Part shown: piece by piece, positions 8,405 to 35,261 of the stretch
Layout of the letters: each line of letters opens with the position of its first letter
Numbering within the stretch: the first letter of the stretch is position 1
NCBI GenBank assembly: GCA_963708185.1
Contig: OY970195.1
Coordinates: forward strand, 1,120,001 to 1,184,000
From: Candidatus Peregrinibacteria bacterium
GTDB taxonomy: Bacteria > Patescibacteriota > Gracilibacteria > UBA1369
Direction of reading: 5' to 3'
DNA length: 64,000 nucleotides
Made by a program: the position numbers and the translations under genes
Notes under the pieces: generated by a model
Databases searched by the model: none
What the model saw: only the letters and a program-made list of their open reading frames with translations
What the model was told of the DNA's origin: nothing

Positions 8405-9157
8405 ATGGCTCGAGAAAATCCCGATAACGATCTTCAGCTCTCAACGTATTTGAACTGCGATCCGAAACTGATCAAGGAACTAAAAAACGAACTTGAACCT
8501 TACGGGCTGACTCATGAACGTTTTGATTTGATCGATCTTTTGCACTCCGCGTTGGAATATAAAAAATCCGGAAAAGTTAAAAAACATCTGGAGGCGCTTG
8601 TGGATACGCTCATGAACATTCTCAAGCAAGGTGAAGTTCCAGAGGAAACACCCAAACAGCCGAACTCGATCGTCATTGAACAGCACGACGTTGCCGACCA
8701 GGTTCGCGCAGCCACCGTGGACGTGGTTGAGCTGAATTTTGAAGGGTCGGCCCTTGATACCGCCGACATGATTGAAACAATTGAAACGCTTTTGGGGAAA
8801 TACGGTCTTCAACGAGACGAGCTTTTGTTCGCCGTGTGTGGTGACAGCGAACTCGATGATCTTCTTCGTACGGGAATCGTTTCCTCAATGGAAGTGATGA
8901 AAAAAATCGCTCAAAAAGAAAAGGATATTCCTTCCGACGCAAGAAAGCTCATGGAGCTATCGCTCATCCTCAATGATTTCAACGATGAATTCAGCGAAAA
9001 AAATTTTTCCGATGCAACCTACAAATACGAAGAGCCTGTTTTGGCTTTTTTTCAGAAAGACCAGTTTGACAGTTACGGTACAAATTATTACATGAAGAAG
9101 AATCGTGCTGCCAACCCGCGCAAGACGTTGAGGCTCGTGGTGAAACTGAAATTCTAA
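8405..9157 (+). CDS. Hypothetical protein
   Basis: 250-aa ORF with its own promoter; no family recognised. Confidence 0.7.
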   Translation: MARENPDNDLQLSTYLNCDPKLIKELKNELEPYGLTHERFDLIDLLHSALEYKKSGKVKKHLEALVDTLMNILKQGEVPEETPKQPNSIVIEQHDVADQVRAATVDVVELNFEGSALDTADMIETIETLLGKYGLQRDELLFAVCGDSELDDLLRTGIVSSMEVMKKIAQKEKDIPSDARKLMELSLILNDFNDEFSEKNFSDATYKYEEPVLAFFQKDQFDSYGTNYYMKKNRAANPRKTLRLVVKLKF

Positions 9158-12587: not shown

Positions 12588-12682
12588 TCGTCCGGGAGAG
12601 GCTCTGAATATGTCATTTCCCGTTATTTGTACGAATGCCGTATTTTTTTGGCCATCAATTCATTGCACATTGCCGATTTATG

Positions 12683-12719
12683 TTGTTTTATTGTGCTTTT
12701 TATGGTATTATTATGTGAT
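12683..12719 (+). promoter_or_regulatory. Promoter of orphan operon A (paralogous to 22248-22284)
   Basis: TTGTTT-N17-TATTAT; 12689-12719 matches 22254-22284 at 27/31 nt. Confidence 0.7.
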
Positions 12720-12745
12720 ATTTAAAAAACTAAAAAACAAACACT

Positions 12746-13108
12746 ATGGCTACAACTTCACCTTTGGACCAGCAAGCTTTTTCCATCAAAAAATTTAAAA
12801 GTTTATTTTATACCTCGCCGGCACGGCAGTTCATGTCTGACATGGACATCGAACAGGTGCGTAAAGCGATCGAGGATAAGGATATTCTGCTCCTTGGTCA
12901 GCTTTATGAAATTTTGCTTCACGAGCAGGTCACGAACGAAAACGTTATCCGCGATTTTGTGATGACCAAAAACAAAATCCTCGACGGGTTCACCGCTGAC
13001 GCCATGTCCATTGAAAAGAGATTCGTTGAAGCTCCGCGAAAAGAGAGGGCTGAAAAAGCAGAAAGAAAAGAGCAGAAGAAAGCGGAGGAAATTCTCAAAA
13101 AACTTTAA
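12746..13108 (+). CDS. Small helical protein, family S copy 1
   Basis: 120 aa, ends ERKEQKKAEEILKKL*; paralogous C-terminus with 20794, 22305, 24310. Confidence 0.8.
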   Translation: MATTSPLDQQAFSIKKFKSLFYTSPARQFMSDMDIEQVRKAIEDKDILLLGQLYEILLHEQVTNENVIRDFVMTKNKILDGFTADAMSIEKRFVEAPRKERAEKAERKEQKKAEEILKKL

Positions 13109-13137
13109 AATTTTTATTAAAACTAAAACAAAAAAAT

Positions 13138-16100
13138 ATGAAAAATTTTTTCCATTTAACGGGCAGGTCTCTTTACGGATTCCAGCAGCATAACCGTTTC
13201 GTTTTCCAGGATGGGGGCCAGACCGAATCCTTCGCGCTTGCAGGTATAGAGGCAGGCCAAGAAAAACAATTATCTCCGGAAAATGGGAAGGAGGCTCTTG
13301 TTGCCCAATACAAACAGGCCAAGGAAACGATCGACAGCCAGGCGGCTCAATACAAAAAAAAGTTTGAAGGGAAAGAGGATGGTGATAAAGCCCAGGCAGC
13401 AATTGAAAAAGCCCGCGGAGATGCTCAAGAAAAATTAGCGGCATCGTATAACCAGATGGTCGGACAGTTGGAAAAAAATTCCGAGACGACGGCAAACGAA
13501 CAGGTAAACGCCATCATTTCCTACCGCAAGGAAAAAGCAGAAGGTAAATACAACGACGCCCTCATCTATGAGACAGTCCCGGGAAAGGCCGGCTTTACAT
13601 GGAGCCCGAAGGGCAAAGTCGGTGCAGATAAAAGCAACGAATGGAACCATCTGGGTGAGGGTGATTTCAAAGTGGCGCTGACCGCAATGATTAAAGCCGT
13701 CTACGTTGCCGAGGGTCCAAAAGCGGCAGATGATCTTGTCAACAAGATGAAGCACCAAAAGCTGGGGTTTGATGAAATGCAGGCCGATCCAGAATATGCT
13801 TTCGGGCAGGGCACTTACCATGATCCTCCGTTGATCCAGTTCAACCCGGACATGGACAACGACGAAAATGGTAACACACGTAAATTGACCGGTCTTGTTT
13901 TCGGTTACGCTCATGCCGCAAGAAACCGTCTTGAAAATGAGGATGCTCGTGAAGCATATTTTTCCTACCTGGCCAGCTCGGGAAAAAAGGCCGGCGCCGC
14001 ACCGCGATCCATGGATCCGGACGACATATTGACTCCCGACCAGTGGCTTGCACAGTCCGGGAATGAAAAATACCTCGGTGCCGCCAAAAAACTCGATGAA
14101 GAAAAACTCAACGAGGAACGGACCGCTCAAGTGGACGATTACCTCGGCAAACTTTCGAACACTAAACAACGTGGAGAATTAAAAGGCCTTCTTCTTGGAC
14201 GTTTGCAGGGAGAAAGCGATCCCAAAAAATGGAACCAGATCATGCGCGAAACTTCCGCCAGTGCATTTGGGATGACCCTTGATGTATACAGCAAAACCGA
14301 ATGGTCTGATCTTGATAAATCCCATCGTTCCAGCATCGATGATTTTGTGAAAAAAGCGCAGGCCAATATGGGGAAATATGTCCTGGAAGAAGGCCAGAAC
14401 CATGACGGTAAATCCGCCGGATATGTTGCGGGCCTTTTGATGAGGGCGGAAGAAAAATTCAAGGACGATCCCGCGATGCTTGCCAAGTATAAAGAACAAC
14501 TCAAGGCTATCACCGACTCCGAAGATCTCAAGAAAAAAATGGGCGATAATCTTGCGAATTCAGAATATTTTTCAAAAAGAGTGGGCGAAGTTGAAGACAA
14601 CTATTCTGCCAAAAAAGATGCCACCGAGAAGCTGAGCAAAGCGAATGACGCACTTTTCGATATCGTCAAGCAGGAGCTGCCTTCGCCGGATAAATTTGTT
14701 GCCGCTGCCAAAGAAGAAAAGGACGAAAAATACAAAAAAATTGGTGAGAAATACCGCAATCAGGAACGCTATGCCGACGACATGATCGCCAAAATTCCTG
14801 CAGACAAGGTCAAGGAACGCAATTATATCCGCAGTATTTTGATCGCTGCCGTAGGCAGGGAAACCGATCCCGATAAAATCAAGGCCCTGGGCGAAGCGGC
14901 ATTAAAAGATAAAGCCGGATTGAACCTTGATCCGGACAAACTTGGAAGCGTTGATTATGAAAAAAACCTCAAGGCTTTTGTTGATGCTCATACCGACTTT
15001 ACCGAGAATGGCAAAAAAATGGACGACCAGTCCAAAAGTTTGGCGGCAGGCTTGCTTTATGCAGCGGAAGTCAAATACAAGGATGAGCCGAATAAGGATA
15101 AAATCCTTGCCGCATATAAAAAGTATCTCAAGGGGAAAATGGATACTCTCGGTAAGGATTCCGATAACCAGGAAGATATTGAAAAACTCAAGTTGAAGCA
15201 GTCTTTGCTTGAGGATACCATCGATAAGGGAACGAGGGATAAAATCCTTGCCGATATTGATAAACTTCAGACAAAACTCTACAACAAAAGCTGGAATGCT
15301 ATGGCTTGGCCGGATACTTTTAAAGAGGACTTTAGCGACAACGAACAACTCATCACCGATAATAAAAACTTTTTAGATAAACATGGAACCCGGGAAAAGG
15401 TAGGCACTTTTCAGCCCGCAAACCGTGAGATCGATGCAATCCTGGATGAGTTTAAAAAAGACCATGCCGATGCGTATAGCAAGAATGAGGAAACTATCAA
15501 AGGAAAAATTGTCGAGTTCCATAAACGCATGGCGAGCAGAAATACCGATCCGGAAAAAGGAGAGGTGATTAAAACCCCTGGAGAACGGCTCAAACTTCTG
15601 GCAGAACTCCAGGGATATCTCTCGAATATGGCTGATGATGGGGTCGAAGAAAACCAGTATATTGATGCCACAGAAAAATATACTTATACCACAAAGATTC
15701 TTGAGGCATCCACAAATATCAATGAAGCTAAAAAGTATGTTCAGGGAATGGCTGAAGGTCTGGGCTTTGACGTCAAAAAAGACCAAAAGGCGATAGATGC
15801 GCTGAAGGCTGTCAATGACGCGAAACCGGAAGACAGGGCTCATGTTATGGCCGAACAGATTGCCGCACTTTATAAAGATTCTCCAAAACATCCTGAAAAT
15901 CCTTTCACGAAAGAGGATTTCGACGATTACAGCCAGTACATCCTTGATAAAAAGACTGCTCCGAAAACTCCGGGCGGTGGAACGGGTGGAGGCAGAGTCC
16001 CGTCCGTCGGACCTTCGGTTGCGCCGGGCAATGGAACTCCGGGAGGAACAAAAGGCCCGGAAATTGTTTCCAGCGTGAGCATCGACATTAGTGCAGCCCC

Positions 16101-16398
16101 GGTTGAAATCAAAATAGATCATAAGAAAGACCGCATGGAAAAACCTCCCCAATGGCTCGCAGGAAAAAGGGATGACATTCTCAAAAAATACAATCAAGAT
16201 GCCAGAAAAAATGATCTCTACGTGGTTCGGAGAGGGAAAGATGAATATGTGGCAGAGGTTTCGCCACTGATAGATTGGGATGGGAATACTATCGTCAACT
16301 ATTACAACAAACCTCCCGAACAAGGGAAAAAACCTGATGCCGGCGTGAAAGTTGCCAGCGCTGATTCAACGGAAAAACCGGATCCGGATAAAAAGTAA
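13138..16398 (+). CDS. Large orphan protein with RxVF leader and internal helical repeats
   Basis: 1086 aa; starts MKNFFHLTGRSLYGFQQHNRFVFQDGG; three AG(L/Y)..A..Y..YL-type repeats. Confidence 0.85.
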   Translation: MKNFFHLTGRSLYGFQQHNRFVFQDGGQTESFALAGIEAGQEKQLSPENGKEALVAQYKQAKETIDSQAAQYKKKFEGKEDGDKAQAAIEKARGDAQEKLAASYNQMVGQLEKNSETTANEQVNAIISYRKEKAEGKYNDALIYETVPGKAGFTWSPKGKVGADKSNEWNHLGEGDFKVALTAMIKAVYVAEGPKAADDLVNKMKHQKLGFDEMQADPEYAFGQGTYHDPPLIQFNPDMDNDENGNTRKLTGLVFGYAHAARNRLENEDAREAYFSYLASSGKKAGAAPRSMDPDDILTPDQWLAQSGNEKYLGAAKKLDEEKLNEERTAQVDDYLGKLSNTKQRGELKGLLLGRLQGESDPKKWNQIMRETSASAFGMTLDVYSKTEWSDLDKSHRSSIDDFVKKAQANMGKYVLEEGQNHDGKSAGYVAGLLMRAEEKFKDDPAMLAKYKEQLKAITDSEDLKKKMGDNLANSEYFSKRVGEVEDNYSAKKDATEKLSKANDALFDIVKQELPSPDKFVAAAKEEKDEKYKKIGEKYRNQERYADDMIAKIPADKVKERNYIRSILIAAVGRETDPDKIKALGEAALKDKAGLNLDPDKLGSVDYEKNLKAFVDAHTDFTENGKKMDDQSKSLAAGLLYAAEVKYKDEPNKDKILAAYKKYLKGKMDTLGKDSDNQEDIEKLKLKQSLLEDTIDKGTRDKILADIDKLQTKLYNKSWNAMAWPDTFKEDFSDNEQLITDNKNFLDKHGTREKVGTFQPANREIDAILDEFKKDHADAYSKNEETIKGKIVEFHKRMASRNTDPEKGEVIKTPGERLKLLAELQGYLSNMADDGVEENQYIDATEKYTYTTKILEASTNINEAKKYVQGMAEGLGFDVKKDQKAIDALKAVNDAKPEDRAHVMAEQIAALYKDSPKHPENPFTKEDFDDYSQYILDKKTAPKTPGGGTGGGRVPSVGPSVAPGNGTPGGTKGPEIVSSVSIDISAAPVEIKIDHKKDRMEKPPQWLAGKRDDILKKYNQDARKNDLYVVRRGKDEYVAEVSPLIDWDGNTIVNYYNKPPEQGKKPDAGVKVASADSTEKPDPDKK

Positions 16399-16410
16399 CA
16401 TCTCTGCTGC

Positions 16411-19400
16411 ATGCCAGAAAATCTCCAGGAACAACTTGATCAGCGTATTGAAAACAAGGAGCAGGTTTCCGCCCTGGATGCTGCCGATGCCTACGCTCAA
16501 ACCATTGAAAGTCACCGCAGGGAGTACATCGCCAAAGGCGGCACTCCCGAAAATTTTGAAAAGGACGAAAAAGCTTTCGTGGAGAAAGCCCGGGAAATCC
16601 GTAATAAGCAGCTCGACAAGATCGGGCTTTTGAACCAGGACCTGGAACGAAAAAAAATTTCCGTCGTCGACAAGACGAGGACCGCTGAGCGAAAAGAACG
16701 TTATGAAAATGCCCAAAAATACGGCTGGGATACAACCGATCCGGACAAAGAGGGAAACATGGACGATTTTGAAGGCACGGGTGACGACAACAAATGGGGC
16801 TTTGGACGAACGGCTCTTGCCGGTTATGTTTCCGGTTTGCAAATGACCGATCCGGCGATGGCTTCCGAAGCTATGAGAAAAGTGCAAGAAGCCTATAAAA
16901 AAACTTCTTCCTGGGGTGATCATTACGTCAGCAACCAGGATATCCGTGACATTATCGGCAATGAGTATCTTTCACAACTGGAGGGGCACCATTTGACGGA
17001 CCGCGCGATGGCATTTCTGGCTTCCTATTTGCGGCAGGCTGATTCTTTTTTTAAAAATTCCGACGAAAACAATACCTATAAAGGTTATGTCGTCGACGCC
17101 ATCGATGACCGATTGAACTCCACGCAGCAACCCGCCGCCCAGGCGGAACATGAGAGTTCCACCGGATGGGGAATCGGCGGGGGCGTCATCGGAACAGCTC
17201 TTGCCATACCGCTCGGACCTATTGCCCCCATTGGCGGCGCTATTATCGGTTCACAGGCTGGCGGCAGTGAGGTCGAAACGTATGCCAGCAAAAACGCACG
17301 TGCTGAGGCACAGCTCAACGCACTTTCAACAATATTGACCCCCAAGGAGTGGAAGGAAGCCTGGACCCAGCGCCTCAAGAACACCCTGGAACCTTTCAAA
17401 AAACTTTGCGACACCATTGTGGCGGCAAATCCGGAATTTACATTCCAAAACCAGGACGTCAAGGACATGCTCGGCAAAAATGCCGACGACCTGATATATT
17501 CCGATGAAACCAAACTCATTGCGGCCAAGGAGAAAGCGCGCGAGGAGCTTCGCGATTTCATGCAAAAGAAAAAAGACGAGTATTCCGGACAGGTCGAAAG
17601 CAATAAAAAAAGCGCTGCCGACCTCAAGGCCAGATACAAGACTCTCCGCATCCCGACGGTCAGCGATGACGAATGGAGCGCTCTGGATACAAGCCTCAAC
17701 CAGCAGGCACAAGACATGGACTCGATCGCTTTTGTTTCCAACACTTCGATGGAAGACCTTGCCGCGATGTGGGGGAAACTGGTGATGGTCCGGGACGGCA
17801 ACGGCCTTTTGCGCAATCAGTTCGACGCTCTGTCGTCACGCATCAAGGATGCGGAAGAAAAAGAGCCGGCCATCGCAAAATTTACCGCCGACAAAGACCT
17901 TCTCGAGACGTACGATCCCAAGACCAAACAGTTCAGCTATACCGCCAACGGGATGCGCTTTGAAAGTGCAAAGGGGAAAGCGCAGGCGACGTTCGGCAAC
18001 CCGGAAATCAACAAAATTTTTGAAAGCAAAATTTCGCCGTTTTTCACCAATATCATCTCAAAGTACAAACTTTCTTCTGATGAGAAAAAGCATGCGGATG
18101 AGATCATGTCCAAGGCCGACAAGAACGATGAAAAGCAGATGGCCGCGGCGAACAAAGAGGTGATGGAATATGTCATGGAGCGTTTCCAGTCGAGAATGAA
18201 AGCAGACGATAAAGAAAAAATCGACAAGATCAGTGCCCTCATTGATCAGGCTGACAAGGATTCGACCTTCAGTTTTGACCATATGCCTTCGGCGGAAGAG
18301 CTGCAAAAGGCTTACGACGAAAAATTCGTTCCGGCGTGGGAAAAAGCCGCCAAAGATTTTGACGCTCAATACGGCAAGGCCACGGGCGAACAACCTTCGG
18401 GCACGGTGGGCGGCGGGTTTCTTGGCGGAGAAGAAACGCCGGAAACCGCTCCTTCAAGCCTTGATCCTTACAGCGACCATTGGTCCAAAGGAACGGACGT
18501 TCCGCTTGATCCGGACTACAAAGGTTTTACCGGCGGGCTGGAAGTCGCCCCGAACATCGAAGATTTGAAATTCCGCGACGTCAACACCCATAAAATTCTT
18601 CTGGCGGTTCCCGGAGGCACCGGAGCCACCGCCAATGAAATCACTCTTTCAGAGCCCGAAGGCACCATCCACAAGGTGGACAGCCTGAGTTTCGTCAAAG
18701 TCAATTACCAGGGCAAAATCTACTACGCGGCCATGGAGTATCTTCAAAAGAACGACCAGTCGCTTATTGCCGAACGGGAAGCCAAGAATGGATCTCCAAA
18801 GATGCCCGGAACTCCGGCAAATCCCGAGGTCCAGCAGGGGCTGCCGAAAGGTCTTGAATTCCTGGGCAAGGTCAACGGCGAATACCGCGACGCCCTGGAA
18901 AGGATTTTGCGCGACAGCGAAAAACCGGGCGGTGCTCTCTTTGACCTGTATTTCAACAAAAAAACGTTGCCGTGCCGTTTAACCAAAGCTCCCAAAGGAC
19001 AATACATCGTGAACTGGGAAGGCGGTTCGTTCACCTACCGTAACCTGAACGAGGTCATGATCGGCATTAACAACGGCTTTTTGCTTCAACAGATTACGTA
19101 CGGAGCGCTGTTGTCGCCGAAATATTACGAAGCTTACGAAGATAAAATCGACAGTTTCAAGGACGACGTCAAAGCGACGGGCAGACCCGGGGAGGTCTAT
19201 TTTGAACTCGACTGGTCCGGTGCCGGACGCGGCGAAGGAAACGCCCAGGTCTGGGCGACGGCACTGCCGAACGGGCTCGTCAACTATCACATCCACCGTG
19301 ATCACGTGGACATCAACGGGGGCAACGACCGCAATGGCATCGCGGGAAGTTTTGACGATTTCATGCAGCAGATCGCGCACATCAAGGAGTGGTCGGAGTA

Positions 19401-19830
19401 TTACGAAGATAACCGCGACGACAGAAAACTGTCCCAGGCCGTGATGAACCGTGAATGGTTCTACGCGCAACTGAATAATCCCCAGACTTTCTACGACGCC
19501 GAGAGCGCCATCGGCCGGCCGGTTTCTTTTAATCTCATCAGCAACGGCGTGATGCAGATGTTCCTGGACTGGGGCGGAGGAGCGGCGCGTGATACCGGCC
19601 ATAACGCGATGCTGAACGTGTGGGCCGACAACAGCGGCAGACTGAACTACATTCTGAATTATAAAGGCAAAGGTCCCAGGGGCGTCGCCAAAGACATCCC
19701 TGAACTTATCAACATTGTCGGGAATCAACGAGCTGCCGTTCTCCAAACCTCACCCGGCGAAACGCCCAAAGAACAGCCAAAAAATACGAGCGGCGTCCCG
19801 GTGGCATCTCCCAATGAAAAAGCGGCATAG
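16411..19830 (+). CDS. Large orphan protein with glycine zipper, SH3b-like segment and duplicated C-terminal module
   Basis: 1139 aa; GWGIGGGVIGTALAIPLGPIAPIGGAIIGSQAGG; FVKVNYQGKIYYAAMEYL; two LDW(S/G)G..NA..W..G..NY modules. Confidence 0.85.
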   Translation: MPENLQEQLDQRIENKEQVSALDAADAYAQTIESHRREYIAKGGTPENFEKDEKAFVEKAREIRNKQLDKIGLLNQDLERKKISVVDKTRTAERKERYENAQKYGWDTTDPDKEGNMDDFEGTGDDNKWGFGRTALAGYVSGLQMTDPAMASEAMRKVQEAYKKTSSWGDHYVSNQDIRDIIGNEYLSQLEGHHLTDRAMAFLASYLRQADSFFKNSDENNTYKGYVVDAIDDRLNSTQQPAAQAEHESSTGWGIGGGVIGTALAIPLGPIAPIGGAIIGSQAGGSEVETYASKNARAEAQLNALSTILTPKEWKEAWTQRLKNTLEPFKKLCDTIVAANPEFTFQNQDVKDMLGKNADDLIYSDETKLIAAKEKAREELRDFMQKKKDEYSGQVESNKKSAADLKARYKTLRIPTVSDDEWSALDTSLNQQAQDMDSIAFVSNTSMEDLAAMWGKLVMVRDGNGLLRNQFDALSSRIKDAEEKEPAIAKFTADKDLLETYDPKTKQFSYTANGMRFESAKGKAQATFGNPEINKIFESKISPFFTNIISKYKLSSDEKKHADEIMSKADKNDEKQMAAANKEVMEYVMERFQSRMKADDKEKIDKISALIDQADKDSTFSFDHMPSAEELQKAYDEKFVPAWEKAAKDFDAQYGKATGEQPSGTVGGGFLGGEETPETAPSSLDPYSDHWSKGTDVPLDPDYKGFTGGLEVAPNIEDLKFRDVNTHKILLAVPGGTGATANEITLSEPEGTIHKVDSLSFVKVNYQGKIYYAAMEYLQKNDQSLIAEREAKNGSPKMPGTPANPEVQQGLPKGLEFLGKVNGEYRDALERILRDSEKPGGALFDLYFNKKTLPCRLTKAPKGQYIVNWEGGSFTYRNLNEVMIGINNGFLLQQITYGALLSPKYYEAYEDKIDSFKDDVKATGRPGEVYFELDWSGAGRGEGNAQVWATALPNGLVNYHIHRDHVDINGGNDRNGIAGSFDDFMQQIAHIKEWSEYYEDNRDDRKLSQAVMNREWFYAQLNNPQTFYDAESAIGRPVSFNLISNGVMQMFLDWGGGAARDTGHNAMLNVWADNSGRLNYILNYKGKGPRGVAKDIPELINIVGNQRAAVLQTSPGETPKEQPKNTSGVPVASPNEKAA

Positions 19831-19887
19831 CAAAAGGATTCATTCGTTTTCCATCAATTTACCATCTATATTCTCACCAAAATTCAT

Positions 19888-20769
19888 ATGAAAAAATTTA
19901 TTTGTTTCAGAAATTTCGCAAACGTTAACCGCTTGGTTTACGCGGCCGGCGGGGAGAAACCATCACAGCCTGAAAATGCCGAGGTGATTCCAAAAGATGC
20001 GGATTTAACTCCGGCGAAACTTGATGAAATTTCCAAAGCCGTCGATAACAATATCAGCGCCGTCGAAGACTATTATAAGGGCGGTGAATCCAAGCTCATG
20101 CATCATCCCGATATGCCGAAGCAGGTCAAAACCCAGTTGGATCAGCTGAAGCAGTTAAAAATCCAGCTCGACCAGGTCAAGGCAAATCCGGCAGGCGCGC
20201 GTCAGGTCCTCGGAAAAATTTACCGTATTTTTACCCAACTTGAAGCACACAGTGAGGAACGGTACAAAGCCGATATCGCATCGCATGATCCTCTTGTCGG
20301 CCTGGGTTTCAGCATCGATACTCCGGAACTCGCACCGGCAGCTCCGAAAACGACCAAGGCTGAAAATGCTCCAGAGACAAAAGAAACACAGCAACAGCTG
20401 GTACGAAGCGCCGTCGAAAACATTGCGCGCGCCGGCGGAGAATTGACCCAGCCCATGCTCGACGCCCTGAAAACCCAATTCAAAGGAACAAATGTCCTTT
20501 CCTACACCCTGAATATTCAGGGAAATCCGGTACTGGTCTTCATTGAACGTTCTCCCGACGGGAAAGGTTTCCAGGCGAAGGGTGTCCGCTACAACGCCGA
20601 AGTCCCTCTGGAAAAACAGGCTTCCTCCTGGGATACCGCAAGTTTCACCTATACCCATTCCTTTGACGCCTTGGACAACTCACCTCCATCCGTTCCCGAC
20701 AAAAGCATTCAAGAGTACGTTTCCCAGGGCAAAAAAGGTAAAAAACTCAACCCGACGGCGCTTGGCTAA
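19888..20769 (+). CDS. Orphan protein with RxVY leader
   Basis: 293 aa; starts MKKFICFRNFANVNRLVYAAGGEKP. Confidence 0.8.
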   Translation: MKKFICFRNFANVNRLVYAAGGEKPSQPENAEVIPKDADLTPAKLDEISKAVDNNISAVEDYYKGGESKLMHHPDMPKQVKTQLDQLKQLKIQLDQVKANPAGARQVLGKIYRIFTQLEAHSEERYKADIASHDPLVGLGFSIDTPELAPAAPKTTKAENAPETKETQQQLVRSAVENIARAGGELTQPMLDALKTQFKGTNVLSYTLNIQGNPVLVFIERSPDGKGFQAKGVRYNAEVPLEKQASSWDTASFTYTHSFDALDNSPPSVPDKSIQEYVSQGKKGKKLNPTALG

Positions 20770-20793
20770 AAACCCTTATCTTCATCGAACATC

Positions 20794-21111
20794 ATGGATC
20801 AATCTCTCCAGGACGAGCTACAGGAACTCATCGAATCTTCTTTGAGTATCGCCACGCTCAGTGACGACAACCAGGCCGCGTTGAAAAAACGATTGCTCGC
20901 TCTTCCTGAGGACGAGATGAGAAGGGTCGTCGAGGTTTTGCGCGGTGAGCAGAAACAGCAGTATGAAGCCATGAAAGGGCTAGTGCAAAAAATCGAGAAC
21001 GCCAGCACCACCCTCAAAAAGACTTTTCTCAAGGAGCGCGAAAAAGAAGAAACCAAACAGTCCGACCAGAAAGCCGACCAGCTCATCAAAAAGCTGGATG
21101 ACATGGATTAA
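20794..21111 (+). CDS. Small helical protein, family S copy 2
   Basis: 105 aa; LIESSLSIATL..RLLALPEDE..VLRGEQ; ends DQKADQLIKKLDDMD*. Confidence 0.8.
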   Translation: MDQSLQDELQELIESSLSIATLSDDNQAALKKRLLALPEDEMRRVVEVLRGEQKQQYEAMKGLVQKIENASTTLKKTFLKEREKEETKQSDQKADQLIKKLDDMD

Positions 21112-21127
21112 GGCGCATGCAGCGGGT

Positions 21128-22186
21128 TCAAAACGGGACGATGTCCCTGATTTTTTTCACGGTCACCAAAAGAAAATACCAGAAAGGCTGGTAAACAATT
21201 TCACGCGCGGGCTGGTAATCCACTCGTTGCCCTCCGAATTTGAGCTTGAAATCGGTGACGCCGGCCCAGGGATGTGTCGGTTGATTTTGCGGAGCGATCC
21301 CGAGAAAATCATACCATTTGCAGCCTGCGGTTTTGGCGTCGAGGAGGGCGCGCCACTGCAGAAGATACGGCGCCATGACGTTGCGGTGTTCGTTGGAGGA
21401 CGCTCCGAAATAGTAGATCGCGGTATCGCGGTAGAACGTGACGATGATGCCCGCCACGATTTCATCTTTATACTCCGCTAGGTAAAGTTTGGCTTCTGGA
21501 TGCGATAAATCGTGACCATGGCCGTTGCGTCCGGGATGTAAGGTCGAAAGCATGTCTTCATAAAATTTTTTGTTGTGACCCGAAAATTTATCGCGCGAGG
21601 TGGTTTGTGAAAGAAGCCGGTAAAAGGCGTCGATATCTTTTACGTTGCCGTCACTGGCCCGGACCGAAACGTGATGTTTTTCAGCGACCCTGATGTTATA
21701 GCGGCCCTTGGGTTTCATCTGCGATAGAAGCCGCTCTTCGGAGAAAGAAAGATCCAGCAGAAGCGTGTTTTCCGGCTGGTAGTGCGCATGGGCTTTGCGT
21801 GAGGGAAGATCTTTCCAGTAGATTTTTTCTTCTTGGGGAAGCGGGGGGTCGAAGCGGAAAAATACCGCATTTTGTTGCCTGGCGAGATCGCGGATTTTTT
21901 TGAGGAGGTGTTTGAGCGCCCGGTGATCGTGGTAATCGGCCAAAGGGCCGCGAGGGCAATACAGCCAGCATTTTTTGAATGGAAGCTCCTGGCGAATAAT
22001 AAGGGCTGAAGCCATTATTATGCCGTTTTCGTCCTCAACGGCGTAACACCAGAATTTTTCACGACCTGCGAGGCTGGTCTGAAATTCTCCCCACTGGGGT
22101 GTCTGGTGGATGGAACCGAGTGGATGTTTCCCCACAAAAGACAGGTATTTCGGCCAGTCATTTTTGGTGATCTCAATGACTTTCAT
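21128..22186 (-). CDS. FemABX-family peptidoglycan bridge aminoacyltransferase
   Basis: HQTPQWGEF, YCPRGP, MKPKGRYNIRVAEK, YFGASS, YDFLGI, FKLKFGG motifs. Confidence 0.9.
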   Translation of the reverse strand: MKVIEITKNDWPKYLSFVGKHPLGSIHQTPQWGEFQTSLAGREKFWCYAVEDENGIIMASALIIRQELPFKKCWLYCPRGPLADYHDHRALKHLLKKIRDLARQQNAVFFRFDPPLPQEEKIYWKDLPSRKAHAHYQPENTLLLDLSFSEERLLSQMKPKGRYNIRVAEKHHVSVRASDGNVKDIDAFYRLLSQTTSRDKFSGHNKKFYEDMLSTLHPGRNGHGHDLSHPEAKLYLAEYKDEIVAGIIVTFYRDTAIYYFGASSNEHRNVMAPYLLQWRALLDAKTAGCKWYDFLGIAPQNQPTHPWAGVTDFKLKFGGQRVDYQPAREIVYQPFWYFLLVTVKKIRDIVPF

Positions 22187-22247
22187 AAGCTTAAAAATCA
22201 GGCAAAACCTACTTTACCATATCATTGTGTCGGTGAAACGAAGAGTG

Positions 22248-22284
22248 TTGCGATATTGGGCTTTTTATAGTATAATTATATGAT
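22248..22284 (+). promoter_or_regulatory. Promoter of orphan operon B
   Basis: TTGCGA-N17-TATAAT; near-identical to the operon A promoter. Confidence 0.75.
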
Positions 22285-22304
22285 CAAATAAACTCAAGAT
22301 ACAT

Positions 22305-22661
22305 ATGGCTGATTACGATCTTATCAAGAATACCGAACTGCGGCTTCTCGTTACAGCTTCGGAAAGTATCCGCAGCTTGAAGGAGCAGGAAATTCAACAG
22401 TGGGTTGAACGTATTGCCGCACTGCCTCCAGAGGGAGAACGGGCGATGCTCGTAGCCCTTCGTGATGAACAGGAACAAATACGCAAAGCAAAACTTGCGA
22501 AAGGCATTACCCCTGAAATGGAGCGCGCGGAGCGTGAAAAGAAAATGGAGAAAGTGTACGCCATCAAAAAAGATTTTGAAAAAGTCGTGCGAATAGAAAA
22601 CGAAAAAACTGCCAACAATGAATCAAGCGCAGAAGCAGAATCTTTACTTAAAAAACTTTAA
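22305..22661 (+). CDS. Small helical protein, family S copy 3
   Basis: 118 aa; LVTASESIRSL..RIAALPPEG..ALRDEQ; ends SAEAESLLKKL*. Confidence 0.8.
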   Translation: MADYDLIKNTELRLLVTASESIRSLKEQEIQQWVERIAALPPEGERAMLVALRDEQEQIRKAKLAKGITPEMERAEREKKMEKVYAIKKDFEKVVRIENEKTANNESSAEAESLLKKL

Positions 22662-22677
22662 ACATTTTTCCCGTTCT

Positions 22678-24291
22678 ATGAAAAACAAACACCTCAAAAT
22701 ATTTCTTCAAGATGAAAACGGCAGTTTTTTCAAACAGCCACGCGTTGTTTTTCAAAACGGAGCTGAAAAACCACAGGAGAACGAGAATAAAGCCCCCGAA
22801 CAGAAAAAAGAAGTTTCACAGCTTGGCTATGATTTTGCCCTCAGTGATGCAAGAAAAGCCATTGCTCCTTATCTGGAAACGAAAATAGAGAATGCAAACA
22901 TCAATGTCGCCGCCCTGAAAGCAAAGGCGGATCTTGATGCACTGGATGTTCGCGTCGACGTTCTTGATAAGGCGGCAAAAGAGGCCAACCTCCAGAAAAT
23001 GCGATCGATCATGGAACGATTTTCCGCTTTCCCCATCGTCAAAGAAAAACAGCAAAAGGCCGTCAAACTCCGAGAGGATCTGATAAAAGATTCCGAAGCA
23101 AAAGCGAAAAAAGCCATTGATGATGTAGTGACTCAATTCGCGAACGTCAAAGGATTCGAGATGAGCGGCGCCCTGAAAACCGACCTTGATGATTACGAAC
23201 AGTCGGTTGAAGGAGGCATGGACATACAGATTGAAGCAACGGCCGGAGAACTCAACACGAACCTGGCGAATCTTGACGGTGCGGGCTTAACCGCCGAAGG
23301 CGCAGCTCTCGACGGAGTCATCAAAAAACTCGACGGAACCGATGTCACACTGAACAAGTACATTGAAAACGCTCTTCGCGATGCCAAGCCGGTAGCGGAA
23401 GGAAAAATCCTTATGGAGATGAGCAAAGGCAAAGACCCTGAAGCCGCCAAACAGTTCATCTCCAAGCAGATCGATGCAAGAATCGCTGCACTTCCCCACA
23501 AAGATGAAATCGACAACGACCGTTCGCGCGGGCAAGAAGCAAAACTGACTCAATTGCGCGATCAGATTCTGGCATCGCTGGATGCTGCAAAAGGTCCGAA
23601 AGACGGCCCGAAAAGATTTACGATCCTGGCGTATTTCCAGGACCAGCTCAACGCCATGGACGTGAAACCAGGCACTCCGGATAATGAGAAACCTTCCCGC
23701 GTCCGGGACGCTTACGGCAAACAGGTTGACCTTGAACTTCAACAGCAAACCGACATTCTGGCCAGGAGAAGGCAGGAATCAGGAACACTGGCCCAGAGAC
23801 TCTTCAACGCCCAGGAACGAGCCAAGAAGGATCCCGACTACAAGGTTGACCCCAAATTGAAAGCTGATGCAGGGAAAGCCTACCTGGCGTTCCGTGAACA
23901 AGAGAAGGCGGTCAAAAAACTGCAGGGCGCGCAGAAAGAGGTCGGTGTTCTTCCACAAGAACCACCGCTGACCAAAGCGCCGGAAATCGGCCCAATCGCC
24001 ACCGCAAAAAGCGTCAAGGATACCATCGACACCTTAAAGTTCAATACCATCGACGGCACCGGAAAAGCCAAAGCCACCATCGACGGCGTTGACGTAACCA
24101 TAACCAAACTCGGACCTCCTTCCTTCAGTACTTCCGTGGATGTTGAAGATAATCCCGATCTCGGCATCACCACCAACATCTCCGGAGACCCTTTTTCCGT
24201 TTCCGAAAGTCTCGCCTGGGCCATCCGCCAGAAAAAAATCACTGACCGAGGCAAAGCCAAGCCCGACGCTTCAGTCGCGGAAAATAAGTAG
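22678..24291 (+). CDS. Orphan coiled-coil protein with RxVF leader
   Basis: From ATG 22678 (537 aa): MKNKHLKIFLQDENGSFFKQPRVVFQNGAEKP. Confidence 0.8.
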   Translation: MKNKHLKIFLQDENGSFFKQPRVVFQNGAEKPQENENKAPEQKKEVSQLGYDFALSDARKAIAPYLETKIENANINVAALKAKADLDALDVRVDVLDKAAKEANLQKMRSIMERFSAFPIVKEKQQKAVKLREDLIKDSEAKAKKAIDDVVTQFANVKGFEMSGALKTDLDDYEQSVEGGMDIQIEATAGELNTNLANLDGAGLTAEGAALDGVIKKLDGTDVTLNKYIENALRDAKPVAEGKILMEMSKGKDPEAAKQFISKQIDARIAALPHKDEIDNDRSRGQEAKLTQLRDQILASLDAAKGPKDGPKRFTILAYFQDQLNAMDVKPGTPDNEKPSRVRDAYGKQVDLELQQQTDILARRRQESGTLAQRLFNAQERAKKDPDYKVDPKLKADAGKAYLAFREQEKAVKKLQGAQKEVGVLPQEPPLTKAPEIGPIATAKSVKDTIDTLKFNTIDGTGKAKATIDGVDVTITKLGPPSFSTSVDVEDNPDLGITTNISGDPFSVSESLAWAIRQKKITDRGKAKPDASVAENK

Positions 24292-24309
24292 TCATTAACT
24301 TTATACGTC

Positions 24310-24615
24310 ATGACCAAAGAACAGTACCTTGCCAACATCCGGAAATTCGACGTCATCAACAGTCTGAGCAGCGAACTCCGCCAGTCGTATATGAATGCAG
24401 ATCAGGTTACCTTTGAAACCAATTTGCGTATGCTTGAACTTGCGCAGGGCGACGTGAAATCCGCAAAAAAGACCTACCTGACGGCGGTGCATGAGGCCGC
24501 GGCCGTGTATGAGAAAGATGCCCAGACGGCCAGACACGACCTGACGAAGAAAGCGGAAAGCAGGGTCCAGACCTCGGATGAGGCCGCGGCCGAAAAACTT
24601 ATTCAAAATCTTTAA
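24310..24615 (+). CDS. Small helical protein, family S copy 4
   Basis: 101 aa; ends TSDEAAAEKLIQNL*. Confidence 0.8.
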   Translation: MTKEQYLANIRKFDVINSLSSELRQSYMNADQVTFETNLRMLELAQGDVKSAKKTYLTAVHEAAAVYEKDAQTARHDLTKKAESRVQTSDEAAAEKLIQNL

Positions 24616-24634
24616 AAAACTTATTTTTAAATCT

Positions 24635-25756
24635 ATGAAAAAATTTCTTCATTGTCTGCCGTCGTTCCGTTCTTCATTCTTCCCGAAGCGAGCGGTTTTT
24701 ATGGGCGAAGTTCCTTCCCAGGCAGACCAGCAGGTCGCAAAAGAAGCCATCAAGGCCAAAGCTCCGGAACTTGAAAAAAAAGGCGAAGCTTTCCAGCAGC
24801 AGCTGGATGCCATGAGCGACGAACAGCTGCAGAAACTGAATGTCGACACGGAAGCAAAAAGCGCCAAAGACGATGTGGACAAAACATTCCAGGACATCAT
24901 GAACGATCCCGTCGTGAACCCGAAGCTCGGAGAAGGAAAGTTCTACACTCCCGGTTCTTATGAGACGCATGCTGATATCCAGCCTTTGCGCGAAGCACGC
25001 GACAACGCGAAAAAGGCCATTGAAAAAGCCCAGGAGGACTGCAAGGAAAAACAGAAGGAAATTACCGACGTCCTCGATCTTCAGCGCAACTCCAGGGTCA
25101 ATGTTGAAGAAGGTTTTAAGACCATGGCCTCCAACAAAGCAGAGATGATGAAAATCCTGGACTCCGATCCGGCAAAATTGAAGATGGAAGACATCCAGCA
25201 ACTCGATCAGAAGTTGAAAAGCGTTACCGGCACCAATGAGTTTCTCACCAATACCATTTACGCCAATCTTGACCAGAATCTTCAGAAGGTCGATGAAATG
25301 AAATTCAAGGACTCTCTTGCGAGCGTGAAGTTTGCGCATGATCTCATGCAGACTGACCTGAAATCTTTCGGCGATACTTTCGCCCAAGTGGATAACGCTT
25401 CTCAGATTTACAAATCTGCTTCAGGTTTTGTGGAAGGCATGAAGCTTCGTTCGCAAGCCAATGCCAGCAACGACGCAACGAAGTTCGACCAGTCTAAGGC
25501 CATGCTTGATGCCGCCAAAAAAAGCGCAGACGGATTCCGTACTATCCGCATCGGCGTTCCGGGAGCCGCTCCCGCCGAAGCCGTGGCACGCGTTGGAACG
25601 ACCAGTGTTGAACATTATGAAGGTGGAGGGAAAGTTGTTGTTGAAAGCGAACCTATCCCGGGTGTAAGAACGGGCGTAACGACCGTTGAACAACCAACTC
25701 CGGGCGTACAACCTGTTGCAGTGGAAGAAAAACCCAAAGAAAAACCGGGCGCGTAA
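24635..25756 (+). CDS. Orphan coiled-coil protein with RxVF leader
   Basis: From ATG 24635 (373 aa): MKKFLHCLPSFRSSFFPKRAVFMGEVP. Confidence 0.8.
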   Translation: MKKFLHCLPSFRSSFFPKRAVFMGEVPSQADQQVAKEAIKAKAPELEKKGEAFQQQLDAMSDEQLQKLNVDTEAKSAKDDVDKTFQDIMNDPVVNPKLGEGKFYTPGSYETHADIQPLREARDNAKKAIEKAQEDCKEKQKEITDVLDLQRNSRVNVEEGFKTMASNKAEMMKILDSDPAKLKMEDIQQLDQKLKSVTGTNEFLTNTIYANLDQNLQKVDEMKFKDSLASVKFAHDLMQTDLKSFGDTFAQVDNASQIYKSASGFVEGMKLRSQANASNDATKFDQSKAMLDAAKKSADGFRTIRIGVPGAAPAEAVARVGTTSVEHYEGGGKVVVESEPIPGVRTGVTTVEQPTPGVQPVAVEEKPKEKPGA

Positions 25757-25782
25757 TCCAAAACATACTCGCAAAAACCTAC

Positions 25783-25810
25783 AAAAAAGAGACCCTTCCG
25801 GGTCTCTTTT
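25783..25810. terminator. Bidirectional intrinsic terminator
   Basis: AAAAAAGAGACCC-TTCC-GGGTCTCTTTT between convergent operon B and ftsZ. Confidence 0.8.
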
Positions 25811-30204: not shown

Positions 30205-30570
30205 TTAATCCAACGACTGACTTCCTCCGCTCACGCTGCTTCCGAGGCTGGTGATGTTTTGGACGATGTCGTTGAAGTTGATGTACTTGATGATGTCGAG
30301 ACCGATGATCCTGCCGACGGTTCCGACGATGACCACGGACAGAATGGTAATGATCAAACCGATGATGGCGTAGCGGATAGTGCTGACGGCCTGTTTGATC
30401 TTGTCTTCCTGGCCTCCGGAAAGGATGAAGGAGATACCTCCGATGAAGATGAAGATAACGGAAAGAAGACCGGCAATGATGATGGCGTATGCCAAGCCTT
30501 TGTTTATGATTTCAACAATGTCATAGCGCTGTGCTGCGCCGAGAATGGAGTTTGCGGGAATGGCTGCCAT
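30205..30570 (-). CDS. TrbC/VirB2-like (T4SS_pilin) pilin of the CPR type
   Basis: TM-GGISFILSGGQEDKIKQAVSTIRYAIIGL-TM signature. Confidence 0.8.
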   Translation of the reverse strand: MAAIPANSILGAAQRYDIVEIINKGLAYAIIIAGLLSVIFIFIGGISFILSGGQEDKIKQAVSTIRYAIIGLIITILSVVIVGTVGRIIGLDIIKYINFNDIVQNITSLGSSVSGGSQSLD

Positions 30571-33365: not shown

Positions 33366-35144
33366 TCAATCATCAGCTGAAATTTCTTGAAATTCTTCTT
33401 CAACAAGTTCCCTGTCTTGAAAAATTTGCGGGGTTAACATCACCTCAGCGTGGCTTAAATAGTTAATAAACCACTCCGCCTCTTGCCTAAGCTGTCTTAC
33501 GTTTATCTTTGAAATTTTACGCCCATCTTTGCGTTGCAACACATAGTTCGAATGTTTTTCGATCCACCTATTTAGTTTTGAAATATTTAGTCTACCGCAA
33601 CGCCAAACATCCATGATTGTTTTTCTATCGGGCAAGGCCATTTTTGCATCAACGGATTCTGATATGGAACCCAAAAATGTAAACATCAAATTACCCGGAT
33701 CAACATTCCCTAATCCCTCCGGCATCATTTCAATGATTGTTTCAACGGCTTCTTGAAAAAATCTTATAATGGTCGGACAATTTTTATCAATCAGCCTCAT
33801 TGATTTGCAGCTAACAAATTCGGAGAGAAATTTTGTCCTGGTCTTTCCTGTACTCGTATAAACATAACGCTTGTAATCGCCGAATATCGGGCGGCCAGAG
33901 ACTGCAATGATAAATGGCTGGATGACTGCTGTCATCAACCCATTGGTAGCATTTCCGTTTTGTAATGCCCCCGCTGGATTTTCTTTTTCCAAACTTTCCA
34001 GCAATTTATTTTCAGCTTCTTCAAGTAATGCAGAAACCAGGAAAGCCAACATCAATATCATTCTGTTTCTTATCATATCGATATCTTCATCCTTAAGGCT
34101 ATCAACCGGTAAAGACAGTTTTCTAAATAATGCATTCCCCACTTTAACTGACCACGCTGCAACTGAAGGGTCGCGGGGCATCTGGAGCGCATTGACGGCT
34201 TTTGTGGTCACCCCTTTGTCGCGAATATTTTGATCTATTTTCATTCCCTTTTTTTCTTGTTCTTTTACTTTTGCAATAAAAGCTTTTCTTACGCTTTCAA
34301 GCCGACCGTCAAATGCTTCCGGGGATTCCAGCCACGCCATATCAAAGCCGATTTTTTTCATTGATGTCTCAAGATCGTCCCATGCCCCTAACTCTTTCAA
34401 AAAAAGGTATTCCGTCTTCGTGGTTATATTTTCTCTCCGTGCCCGCGTGTTCAAAAGGATAATTGCATCATCGGATAAAGGAAGCATTTTCATGACGGTG
34501 TCATACCCCCGGCACATCGCTCCTAAAAAATCTAAACTTACAACATCAAAAGGTTTCTTTTCTTTCTCAAGAACCTTTTCCAGTCGTCCAATTTGGTATT
34601 GGATCCCCATTCTTTTCGCATTCTCTTCAAATTCGTCTCGGGCCTCCTTGTCGCCGCCTTCAACCCCTAAGATGTTTTGGGAACGGAAACCTAGGTCAAG
34701 ATATGTTTGTATTTCGAGACACTTTTTCCCGGGCAAACAGAGGACTCTCATTTTTCTTCTTTTTTTGGGATCCGTATTTTTATCAACGAATTCATAAATT
34801 TTTCTTCTCCACGCTCTTTTTATTTCGTTATCATAATCAAAATGTTCACCTCCTTCATGAGGATCCTCGTCCGTAGATCCGTACTTACCATCTTCTTCTA
34901 TGTCCTCTTTCATTTCAACGGAAACTTCTTCTTCCTTCAAAGGAACTTGCGTTGCATCCGTTTCCATTAGTCTTTTTGCTCTTATCTTGGTCCATGCGGT
35001 AATCGCCGCTATTGTCTGTATGCTTACGTTAAATGTATCAGCGCACTCTCTGCGGAATTGTCTTTTTTCTTCATCAGTACTTCCAGAAGATACGTAGTCT
35101 CTGATGAATTTCCTATCTTCATTATTGAGAGCGGGTATTGTCAT
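33366..35144 (-). CDS. AT-rich orphan with SAM-methyltransferase-like central domain
   Basis: VLCLPG..ILGVEG..FDVVSLDFLG pattern matches class I MTase motif spacing; convergent on the tRNA 3' end. Confidence 0.6.
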   Translation of the reverse strand: MTIPALNNEDRKFIRDYVSSGSTDEEKRQFRRECADTFNVSIQTIAAITAWTKIRAKRLMETDATQVPLKEEEVSVEMKEDIEEDGKYGSTDEDPHEGGEHFDYDNEIKRAWRRKIYEFVDKNTDPKKRRKMRVLCLPGKKCLEIQTYLDLGFRSQNILGVEGGDKEARDEFEENAKRMGIQYQIGRLEKVLEKEKKPFDVVSLDFLGAMCRGYDTVMKMLPLSDDAIILLNTRARRENITTKTEYLFLKELGAWDDLETSMKKIGFDMAWLESPEAFDGRLESVRKAFIAKVKEQEKKGMKIDQNIRDKGVTTKAVNALQMPRDPSVAAWSVKVGNALFRKLSLPVDSLKDEDIDMIRNRMILMLAFLVSALLEEAENKLLESLEKENPAGALQNGNATNGLMTAVIQPFIIAVSGRPIFGDYKRYVYTSTGKTRTKFLSEFVSCKSMRLIDKNCPTIIRFFQEAVETIIEMMPEGLGNVDPGNLMFTFLGSISESVDAKMALPDRKTIMDVWRCGRLNISKLNRWIEKHSNYVLQRKDGRKISKINVRQLRQEAEWFINYLSHAEVMLTPQIFQDRELVEEEFQEISADD

Positions 35145-35261
35145 GAGCGATAACAAAAATTGGTTTCGTGGAATAATATATTTTTACGGCGCTGTCAAAT
35201 TACGCCCCGGCTTCTTCCTTCTTAGAGTGAGTGATATATTCTTGGTGATTTTGCTATTGCT

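Follow-up and report, generated by a model that had tools for sequence, protein, structure and literature searches.

Small proteins of a class-restricted family and an N-terminal leader on large neighbouring proteins in Candidatus Peregrinibacteria: a possible export address

What do small proteins do when they are encoded, repeatedly, beside large proteins that resemble one another in little beyond an N-terminal leader? The question is raised by a gene cluster of a Candidatus Peregrinibacteria bacterium (assembly GCA_963708185.1, contig OY970195.1), the genome of which is 1.44 Mb in size, 99% complete and contains 10,784 open reading frames (ORFs). The window referred to throughout is the 64-kb stretch analysed (contig positions 1,120,001 to 1,184,000), and coordinates are those of the window unless said to lie outside it. 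According to the ORF list, the cluster reads S1-L1-L2-L3-S2 on the forward strand, a femX-like gene on the reverse strand, then S3-L4-S4-L5 on the forward strand. An earlier note on this DNA had interpreted these genes as a lineage-specific export system of small partners and large cargo; the layout it described, with four S proteins (101-120 amino acids (aa)), four leader-bearing L proteins and gaps of 16-29 nucleotides (nt), is confirmed by the ORF list. The gaps are 29, 16 and 19 nt where S precedes L, and 24 nt between L3 and the S2 that follows it.

The S proteins constitute a real and previously undescribed protein family. All four in the window, encoded on the forward strand (S1, 120 aa, 12746-13108; S2, 105 aa, 20794-21111; S3, 118 aa, 22305-22661; S4, 101 aa, 24310-24615), share the C-terminal motif A-[ED]-x-[LI]-[LI]-[KQ]-[KN]-L, which the earlier note had pointed out and which can be seen in their alignment. 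The other three share 16-21% identity with S1, and S2 and S3 alone detect each other in pairwise comparison (E ~3e-3); the evidence that the four are kin therefore comes from profiles in which relatives are included. A profile of the four retrieves only themselves from the ORFs of the genome (next best E 0.14), while S1 is matched by a 150-sequence S profile at E 8e-26, and S2, S3 and S4 give profile E-values of 3.6e-19, 3e-30 and 1.5e-13. Profile searching of this genome and 40 relatives detected S-like genes in 30 of the 41, and an alignment of 23 sequences has a single architecture: an N-terminal S-x-S...L, then L-x-x-E-Q, a long charged region and the ending A-E-x-L-L-x-x-L. A search of 1.84 billion entries returned 671 cluster representatives at E<=1e-3 (158 at E<=1e-10), nearly all 100-135 aa in length; the features conserved across the family are an N-terminal bundle (S-x-S-[MIL]...E-E-[RK]-x-[YQ]-W...L-P-x-M), a long charged helix and the C-terminal A-E-x-L-L-x-x-L. 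The AlphaFold2 model of S3 (predicted local distance difference test (pLDDT) score 77.5) is all-helical, with a bundle at residues 10-65 and a long helix at residues 70-117.

None of the libraries searched connects this family with a known one. When 150 S members were compared with Pfam, the most frequent family matched just three of them, and the WXG100 and Lap families were absent among the Pfam matches listed (25 of 45 families). The S profile found no relative among sequences in the PDB (best E 0.014), and a Foldseek comparison of the S3 model with the PDB gave no match at E<=1e-3. Nor was a description of the S family or of the leader found in searches of the literature on Gracilibacteria, Peregrinibacteria, Absconditabacteria and Vampirococcus. 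A sub-type of S in relatives has extra C-terminal tails (KKLFGIF, KKKKFGIF, RKKFFGLF and KKKKFLGIF; L014:15726-16109, L019:4640-5029, L015:6686-7078 and L043:15076-15459). These resemble the FtsA C-terminus of the same genomes, KDWFKGLFP, and may be membrane-targeting tails.

The distribution of the family is wide within one class and almost confined to it. Using the 150-sequence profile, S-family genes were found in 148 of the 151 class genomes sampled, mostly in one to three copies, and elsewhere in the phylum in 8 of 143 genomes, where all matches were weak and partial. The best-conserved copy, S0, carries the motif S-E-S-M-x-x-E-E-R-x-Y-W...L-P-x-M...E-Q together with the same C-terminal end. 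In this genome it lies at 695164-695793, far from the window, and the four S genes of the window are paralogues of this near-universal, class-restricted core protein. S0 is often solitary, and its neighbours vary by order, being greA and holA in a GC-rich family, where S0 follows greA, a PrsW-like protease upstream of S0 in two families and a PilT-like ATPase in a TGA-recoded family; as they are not conserved between orders, no partner is indicated. An S0 orthologue retrieved only 'hypothetical protein' clusters of Candidatus Peregrinibacteriota from the ESM Atlas. S is thus no lineage-specific accessory, and with a core copy in 148 of 151 genomes it could well serve a broader function. The titles of related loci name Candidatus Peribacteria or Candidatus Gracilibacteria, which bears out the earlier assignment of this DNA to a bacterium of the candidate phyla radiation (CPR). 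The two-part system of S and leader, of which the window contains a local expansion, is restricted to a single CPR class, comprising metagenome-assembled genomes labelled Peribacteria or Gracilibacteria and the TGA-recoded, predatory or epibiotic lineages. In three of three loci examined from the TGA-recoded family (L052, L053 and L054, from G102, G141 and G112), S0 is directly downstream of the PilT-like ATPase, which is 360-391 aa in length.

The second component is the leader, present in the window on L1 (1086 aa, 13138-16398, +, MKNFFHLTGRSLYGFQQHNRFVFQDGG; leader profile E 6e-10), L3 (293 aa, 19888-20769, +, MKKFICFRNFANVNRLVYAAGG; E 6e-8), L4 (537 aa, 22678-24291, +, MKNKHLKIFLQDENGSFFKQPRVVFQNG; found by both leader pattern and profile) and L5 (373 aa, 24635-25756, +, MKKFLHCLPSFRSSFFPKRAVFMG; E 6e-11). 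The true starts of L4 and L5 are the Met codons at 22678 and 24635. The leader is 20-40 aa long, opens with a basic and aromatic-rich segment and precedes a hypervariable body. Over 73 leader proteins its core is [FL]-F-x-[EP]-[KN]-R-[LF]-[VI]-[FY]; in this count, which conditions on the Arg, F occupies position -4 in 45 proteins, L or F position +1 in 62, V or I position +2 in 66 and F or Y position +3 in 68. The Arg is the sole invariant column besides Met1 in four separate alignments (of 23, 28, 39 and 34 proteins), and its position has a median of 18 and a range of 6-40 across the 73. The 30 residues past the core are rich in Glu, Ala, Lys, Pro, Gly and Asp and resemble a flexible linker.

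The leader motif is positional and always N-terminal. A loose form of the pattern matches only four of the genome's ORFs, namely L1, L3, L4 and L5, and in a further set of profile matches all 34 begin no later than residue 22 of the ORF. Leader ORFs cannot be extended upstream, because each opens at the first start codon after a stop. At E<=0.01, a short profile finds leaders in 33 of the 151 class genomes. Sec and lipoprotein signals of the ordinary kind are present on other proteins of this genome, and the leader does not resemble them. A fifth leader protein, of 710 aa (MQKFIRHLRFSASFFERRLVFMAGPESPG), is encoded outside the window at 199395-201527 (+) of the contig, with no adjoining S gene.

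The association between the two components is found well beyond this locus. The leader profile was built from genes chosen for standing beside S, and only non-training matches were therefore counted for adjacency. Among the relatives, 10 of 17 such matches (E<=1e-3) directly adjoin an S gene on the same strand with gaps of at most 27 nt, S being upstream in eight cases and downstream in two; in a wider set, S is directly upstream in 8 of 34. The chance level would be near 1%, given at most ~9 S genes among ~1,300 genes. Co-occurrence elsewhere, the lack of which the earlier note had named among the outcomes that would refute its proposal, is thus found. Adjacency reaches outside the order, into families f20, f24, f27, f29, f33 and f40; pairs are also seen by coordinates in G117 (f20) and in G111 and G179 (f27), and in G082 (f33) an S0 orthologue lies 9 nt upstream of a gene for a 1046-aa leader protein. 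The pairing is real and old, yet it is not obligatory, because many leader proteins stand alone. A prediction of the complex between S3 and the first 50 residues of L4 scored 0.00 against a mark of 0.32; made without controls, it counts neither for nor against binding.

What the leader proteins carry gives the best indication of where they act. A Pfam scan of the 73 (sets of 39 and 34) yielded no family match for most of them. A LytR_cpsA_psr (LCP) domain was recognised at 47 bits in a 1431-aa protein (locus L036, 4017-8309, G036), GDSL/SGNH hydrolase domains above the cut-off at 43-45 bits in proteins of L028 and L031, with weaker matches in L066, L092, L096 and L097, and a phage-tail lysozyme (Phage_lysozyme2) in the orthologous pair from L066 and L092 (31.6 and 28.7 bits, cut-off 28.2). 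The L097 protein is related to that of L028 (phmmer E 5e-32), and the enzyme-bearing proteins perhaps represent three or four architectures that are independent by descent. One TPR match and one weak BigA beta-sandwich match complete the set. The site of action of LCP enzymes and peptidoglycan hydrolases is beyond the cytoplasmic membrane. In the first set, however, not one of the 39 proteins has a 19-residue Kyte-Doolittle mean that reaches 1.6, which would mark a hydrophobic core or membrane span, and near the N-termini of L1, L3, L4 and L5 the best 12-residue mean is at most 0.60, short of a Sec hydrophobic core. Envelope-acting payloads without a membrane-spanning stretch are therefore the strongest pointer to a non-classical exit from the cytoplasm; one-step effectors of other secretion systems leave in the same manner. 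Inspection of the L036 protein by eye also reveals E-R-S...G-L-F-Q-I near residue 765, which recalls a lytic transglycosylase motif and is not reported by Pfam at E<=1e-3.

The explanation favoured here, tentatively and at a little under an even likelihood, is that the leader is a class-specific N-terminal address for export by a route other than Sec or Tat, and that the S proteins are cytoplasmic escorts or adaptors. The leader would mark proteins that leave the cytoplasm through neither of those pathways, and S proteins, stationed at the cytoplasmic side of the membrane, would escort or adapt the leader-bearing cargo. S0 might serve cargo generally, and each paralogue the large helical L protein encoded beside it. 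The sequences themselves establish the two families, the N-terminal place of the leader, the adjacency and distribution of both components, the envelope-acting domains on some leader proteins and the lack of classical signals; the physical binding of S to L, export itself and the identity of any translocon are inferred. A fuller version, possible but on balance unlikely, holds that the class has its own Sec- and Tat-independent pathway with an F-x-E-K-R-L-V-F signal, S0 and its paralogues, an unrecognised class-specific membrane machine, and a cargo of peptidoglycan hydrolases, SGNH esterases or lipases and large variable fibrous proteins destined for the cell's own envelope or for a host.

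Members of this CPR class either live on other cells or prey upon them. What is new is a class-wide, undescribed S family and an N-terminal tag that marks dozens of orphan proteins per clade. Some of the tagged orphans are cell-wall and lipid hydrolases, and together they form a list of candidate surface or effector proteins bearing an address label. Should the tag prove to be an export signal, a new secretion route would be defined, and the secretome of a large uncultured lineage could be predicted in silico; if the proteins are cytoplasmic, they would constitute a new divisome- or membrane-associated scaffold in cells without many known division factors.

The arrangement invites comparison with several known systems. 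The earlier note had likened it to substrate-partner pairs of type VII and type III secretion systems (T7SS and T3SS), and that likeness stands for the layout, a small helical partner beside a tagged large protein, whereas membership of either system does not follow from the genes present. As in the LXG/Lap/WXG100 modules of T7SSb in Firmicutes, a gene for a helical protein of ~100 aa stands beside a gene for a large protein with a conserved N-terminus and a variable body, modules occur in arrays, some payloads act on the envelope and there is no Sec signal. S has, however, no sequence or fold relation to those partners and no WxG motif, and an LXG domain, helical and ~200 aa long, contrasts with a leader of 20-40 aa, the core of which is beta-strand-like; no LXG domain was found on L1-L5 with Pfam or among the families on the 73 leader proteins. 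EssC is also absent from the genome: no multi-domain FtsK protein of EssC/EccC type was found, only a 758-aa protein with a single strong FtsK_SpoIIIE match and a second match of 18.7 bits, below the cut-off. T3SS chaperones resemble S in being small, acidic or charged partners whose genes adjoin those of the cargo; T3SS cargo is recognised through its N-terminal region, and the proposed general and dedicated escorts would parallel multi- and single-cargo chaperones. The differences are that S is all-helical rather than of the alpha/beta CesT-type fold, that T3SS N-terminal signals have no fixed motif in contrast to the invariant Arg core of the leader, and that the SctV/FlhA export gate (FHIPEP) has no match in this genome. 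Mycobacterial PE/PPE pairs also combine a small helical gene upstream with a larger protein of conserved N-terminus and variable C-terminus, in many paralogous pairs, but they share no homology with S and L, an ESX system is absent, and a PPE domain greatly exceeds the leader in length.

Two further routes were considered through their signals and machinery. TatC has no match in the genome, and only one Arg of the leader is invariant, with a polar Pro/Glu/Gly linker after it, which is not the form of a Tat signal. Likewise, no Peptidase_C39 exporter was matched in the genome, and a Gly-Gly after the leader core is not conserved in relatives. The S-L pairs resemble chaperone-effector or Lap-LXG pairs, yet by the features searched for they belong to none of T7SS, T3SS, Tat, Sec or the peptidase-containing ATP-binding cassette transporters (PCAT).

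Among the alternatives, a degenerate form of a known signal would call for no machinery other than the general secretory pathway. Leaders open like signal peptides, with M-K-K and residues that are aromatic or aliphatic, in a few orthologues 14-15 residues are free of charge (for example MKKLFHIAFPQVFGLQAIKR in G002 and G003), payload domains of the kinds found are usually exported by Sec, and no other dedicated machine was found. The leader might then be a signal, or a signal-anchor, that depends on Sec or YidC, and S a holdase that keeps long helical precursors in the manner of SecB. This is improbable, as most leaders are broken by Arg, Lys, Glu or His, and the hydropathy maxima remain below 1.6 over 19 residues in all 39 proteins and at or below 0.60 over 12 residues in the leader-bearing L proteins of the window. 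In addition, nothing in Sec signals corresponds to the core R-[LF]-[VI]-[FY] with its polar linker, other proteins of the genome do bear ordinary Sec and lipoprotein signals, and NCBIfam, a library that includes sorting-signal models, gives nothing above cut-off on the leader-bearing L proteins. Parts of a type IV secretion system (T4SS) are encoded in the genome: two coupling proteins of VirD4 type, a single VirB4-like ATPase (AAA_10) and 15 VirB2-like (T4SS_pilin) matches, with arrays at ~201-204 kb, 617-619 kb, 480 kb and 1116 kb and one 121-aa pilin in the window (30205-30570, -; 36 bits against a cut-off of 26.6), while no CagE/TrbE/VirB-type VirB4 was matched. The genome also has three T2SSE-family ATPases. 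Small adaptors (IcmS/IcmW, VirE1) serve known systems of this kind, and the antibacterial T4SS effectors, such as the X-Tfe of Xanthomonas, include peptidoglycan hydrolases and lipases. Leader proteins could accordingly be imagined as the missing cargo of the relaxase-less T4SS of Patescibacteria, with S acting like the small adaptors. The leader protein at 199395-201527 is flanked on one side by an operon for a type IV pilus/pseudopilin (~191-197.5 kb) and on the other by an array of VirB2-like pilins that includes a T2SSE-family ATPase (201.6-205.3 kb), and in G026 an S-L pair is one gene from a small signal-bearing ORF, pilin-like by eye, which is followed by murB. Such systems are described, in a passage of PMC12102498, as widespread in the phylum, mostly relaxase-less and of unknown role. 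This phylum-wide occurrence differs from that of S, which is limited to one class; no T4SS gene stands beside the window cluster, and neither S nor L gives a family match to such adaptors or effectors. Since VirD4 is found in 130 of the 151 class genomes, its phyletic comparison with S is uninformative, but four of the 33 leader-positive genomes (G040, G098, G092 and G113) have no VirD4 match at E<=1e-5, and two of these encode the leader proteins that combine lysozyme with SGNH. Known T4SS signals, moreover, are C-terminal, and the explanation is decidedly improbable.

The remaining alternatives do without export of the kind proposed, or give it another purpose. It is fairly unlikely that S and L are both membrane-peripheral, coiled-coil-rich cytoskeletal or divisome proteins, the leader being a docking peptide or in-plane anchor and S a tether of L to the membrane or to FtsA/FtsZ. 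It is not obvious what LCP, SGNH or lysozyme domains would do in such a cytoplasmic scaffold, and neither S0 nor the S-L pairs are near ftsZ or ftsA outside the Peribacteraceae; this genome also encodes leader proteins at 199 kb, 329 kb and 876 kb (875775-879443), a long way from its division genes. Extreme divergence and variable copy number are likewise not what a scaffold would suggest. It would, on the other hand, explain why the def/femX/ftsZ/ftsA synteny is kept within the family and reaches the order-level relative G039, why L bodies are rich in Lys, Glu and Ala with no membrane-spanning stretch, and why S0 is near-universal and housekeeping-like. The tailed S sub-type, ending in K-K-K-F-G-I-F, K-K-F-F-G-L-F or K-K-K-F-L-G-I-F, is also close to the FtsA end K-D-W-F-K-G-L-F-P, and the FtsA tail is a membrane-targeting sequence. 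That L might instead be a polymorphic toxin with a variable C-terminus, and S its immunity protein, is very improbable despite the tight coupling of small and large genes, the hypervariable bodies and some hydrolase payloads: immunity proteins normally vary with their toxin, but S is one conserved family beside mutually unrelated L bodies, usually precedes L, and as S0 is near-universal and often solitary, and no PADLOC or toxin-family match was obtained.

Several observations weigh against export by way of the leader and S. S0 is near-universal while leaders were found in 33 of 151 genomes, so that S0 may act in a way unrelated to leaders. The FtsA-like tails, by their sequence likeness, would put some S paralogues at the cytoplasmic face of the membrane, a location that does not in itself show export. 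Several of the enzyme-domain scores are at or below the Pfam cut-offs, and of the seven enzyme-bearing leader proteins only that of L036 has an adjoining S-like gene, a weak one (E 6.5e-3). L1, L3, L4 and L5 of the window have no recognisable domain in Pfam, NCBIfam, PHROGs or PADLOC. The fixed order in Peribacteraceae of def, S-L arrays, femX, S-L arrays and ftsZ-ftsA would suit a division or envelope scaffold too. Finally, no translocon, ATPase or T4SS gene adjoins the window cluster. The earlier note had similarly recognised no secretion machinery, and no translocon can be tied to the cluster here either; its proposal of a lineage-specific export route gains from the envelope-acting payloads without a Sec core and falls short in that no machinery is linked to the locus.

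With regard to the layout of the locus, the cluster is flanked by prfB and def upstream of S1, where a Mur ligase and a polysaccharide flippase-like gene are also found, and by ftsZ and ftsA, which are convergent with it, beyond L5. The regions upstream of S1 and S3 have a common block of ~40 nt (12680-12719 and 22245-22284, both +), in agreement with the near-identical promoters described previously for the two operons. The S3 copy includes a good sigma-70-like site, TTGCGA-17-TATAAT, at 22248-22276; the promoter-like block before S1 was recognised by alignment with it and is not called by the sigma-70 consensus scan. The terminator said to end the second operon can be read in the sequence between the convergent L5 and ftsZ, where an A-run, a 7-bp GC-rich hairpin and a T-run (25783-25810) are terminator-like in both directions. 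The hairpin itself, GAGACCC-TTCC-GGGTCTC followed by TTTT, spans 25789-25810 and was missed by the consensus scan because the scan requires at least five T. None of the nine S and L proteins reached a curated cut-off in Pfam, NCBIfam, PHROGs or PADLOC, a hydropathy scan identified no membrane-spanning stretch in the S and L proteins of the window, L1 included, and the L proteins contain no sortase-type LPXTG motif. A search of sequencing runs found no matching RNA run and a single DNA run, the share of words in which was 0.06.

The rate at which these genes change differs greatly from that of their neighbours. Within the genus, identity is 98-99% for FtsA, 92-95% for FtsZ, 82-84% for PrfB, 77-82% for Def and 65-69% for FemX, and falls to 57-64% for S1, 42-44% for S3, 41-47% for L2 and 32-40% for L1, while for L3 and L4 no counterpart could be detected in these loci. 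The divergence of L bodies noted earlier is evident within the window also, where BLASTP detects no similarity past the leader among these Lys/Glu/Ala-rich proteins. Between def and ftsZ, relatives contain from two to about seven S-L modules. Such turnover of L suits surface or conflict proteins, although coiled coils under low constraint also drift fast and could be another source of the divergence.

Two genes of the cluster carry neither leader nor S motif. L2 (1139 aa, 16411-19830, +) is leaderless and always follows L1; its family comprises 11 homologues, none with a Pfam domain. A Gly-rich hydrophobic stretch at residues 262-290 of this genome's L2 (GIGGGVIGTALAIPLGPIAPIGGAIIG) is not conserved, and only 2 of the 11 contain any window with a Kyte-Doolittle value of 1.6, so that L2 is not a membrane protein as a rule. 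The C-terminal 500 aa are modelled confidently by AlphaFold2 as beta-rich and helical modules (pLDDT 78.6), with no Foldseek match in the PDB, and the ESM Atlas returned nothing for L2. One BFVD match to this region (E 9.1e-4) was judged meaningless (TM score 0.10, root-mean-square deviation 20 A). The femX-like gene (21128-22186, -) is predicted to encode an aminoacyl-tRNA-dependent peptidyltransferase of the FemAB family, its product scoring 155.1 bits with Pfam FemAB (PF02388, cut-off 24), whereas the NCBIfam FemX equivalog, at 70 bits against a cut-off of 500, does not support exact FemX equivalence. It is inside the cluster in every relative examined, including G039, which may be plain synteny in a cell-wall and division neighbourhood or a hint that L acts on peptidoglycan.

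Deeper profiles detect three more S-like genes and two or three more leader proteins outside the window in this genome. At 336276-340217 (+) of the contig, a gap of 3 nt separates a weak S-like ORF (E 4.7e-4) from the gene downstream of it, which encodes a leaderless protein of 1179 aa, an arrangement that recalls an S gene paired with an L2-type protein. At 328649-329732 (-), again beyond the window, an 82-aa ORF with a short leader (MMNIFKENRLIFQQ) comes after two small helical ORFs, of 167 and 109 aa, that have borderline similarity to S2 and S3, and a similar small ORF and leader match occur in G017 (locus L039). Within the window, three further ORFs encode orphan proteins of 1348 aa (325-4371, -), 250 aa (8405-9157, +) and 596 aa (33366-35156, -), which match no Pfam family at E<=1e-3.

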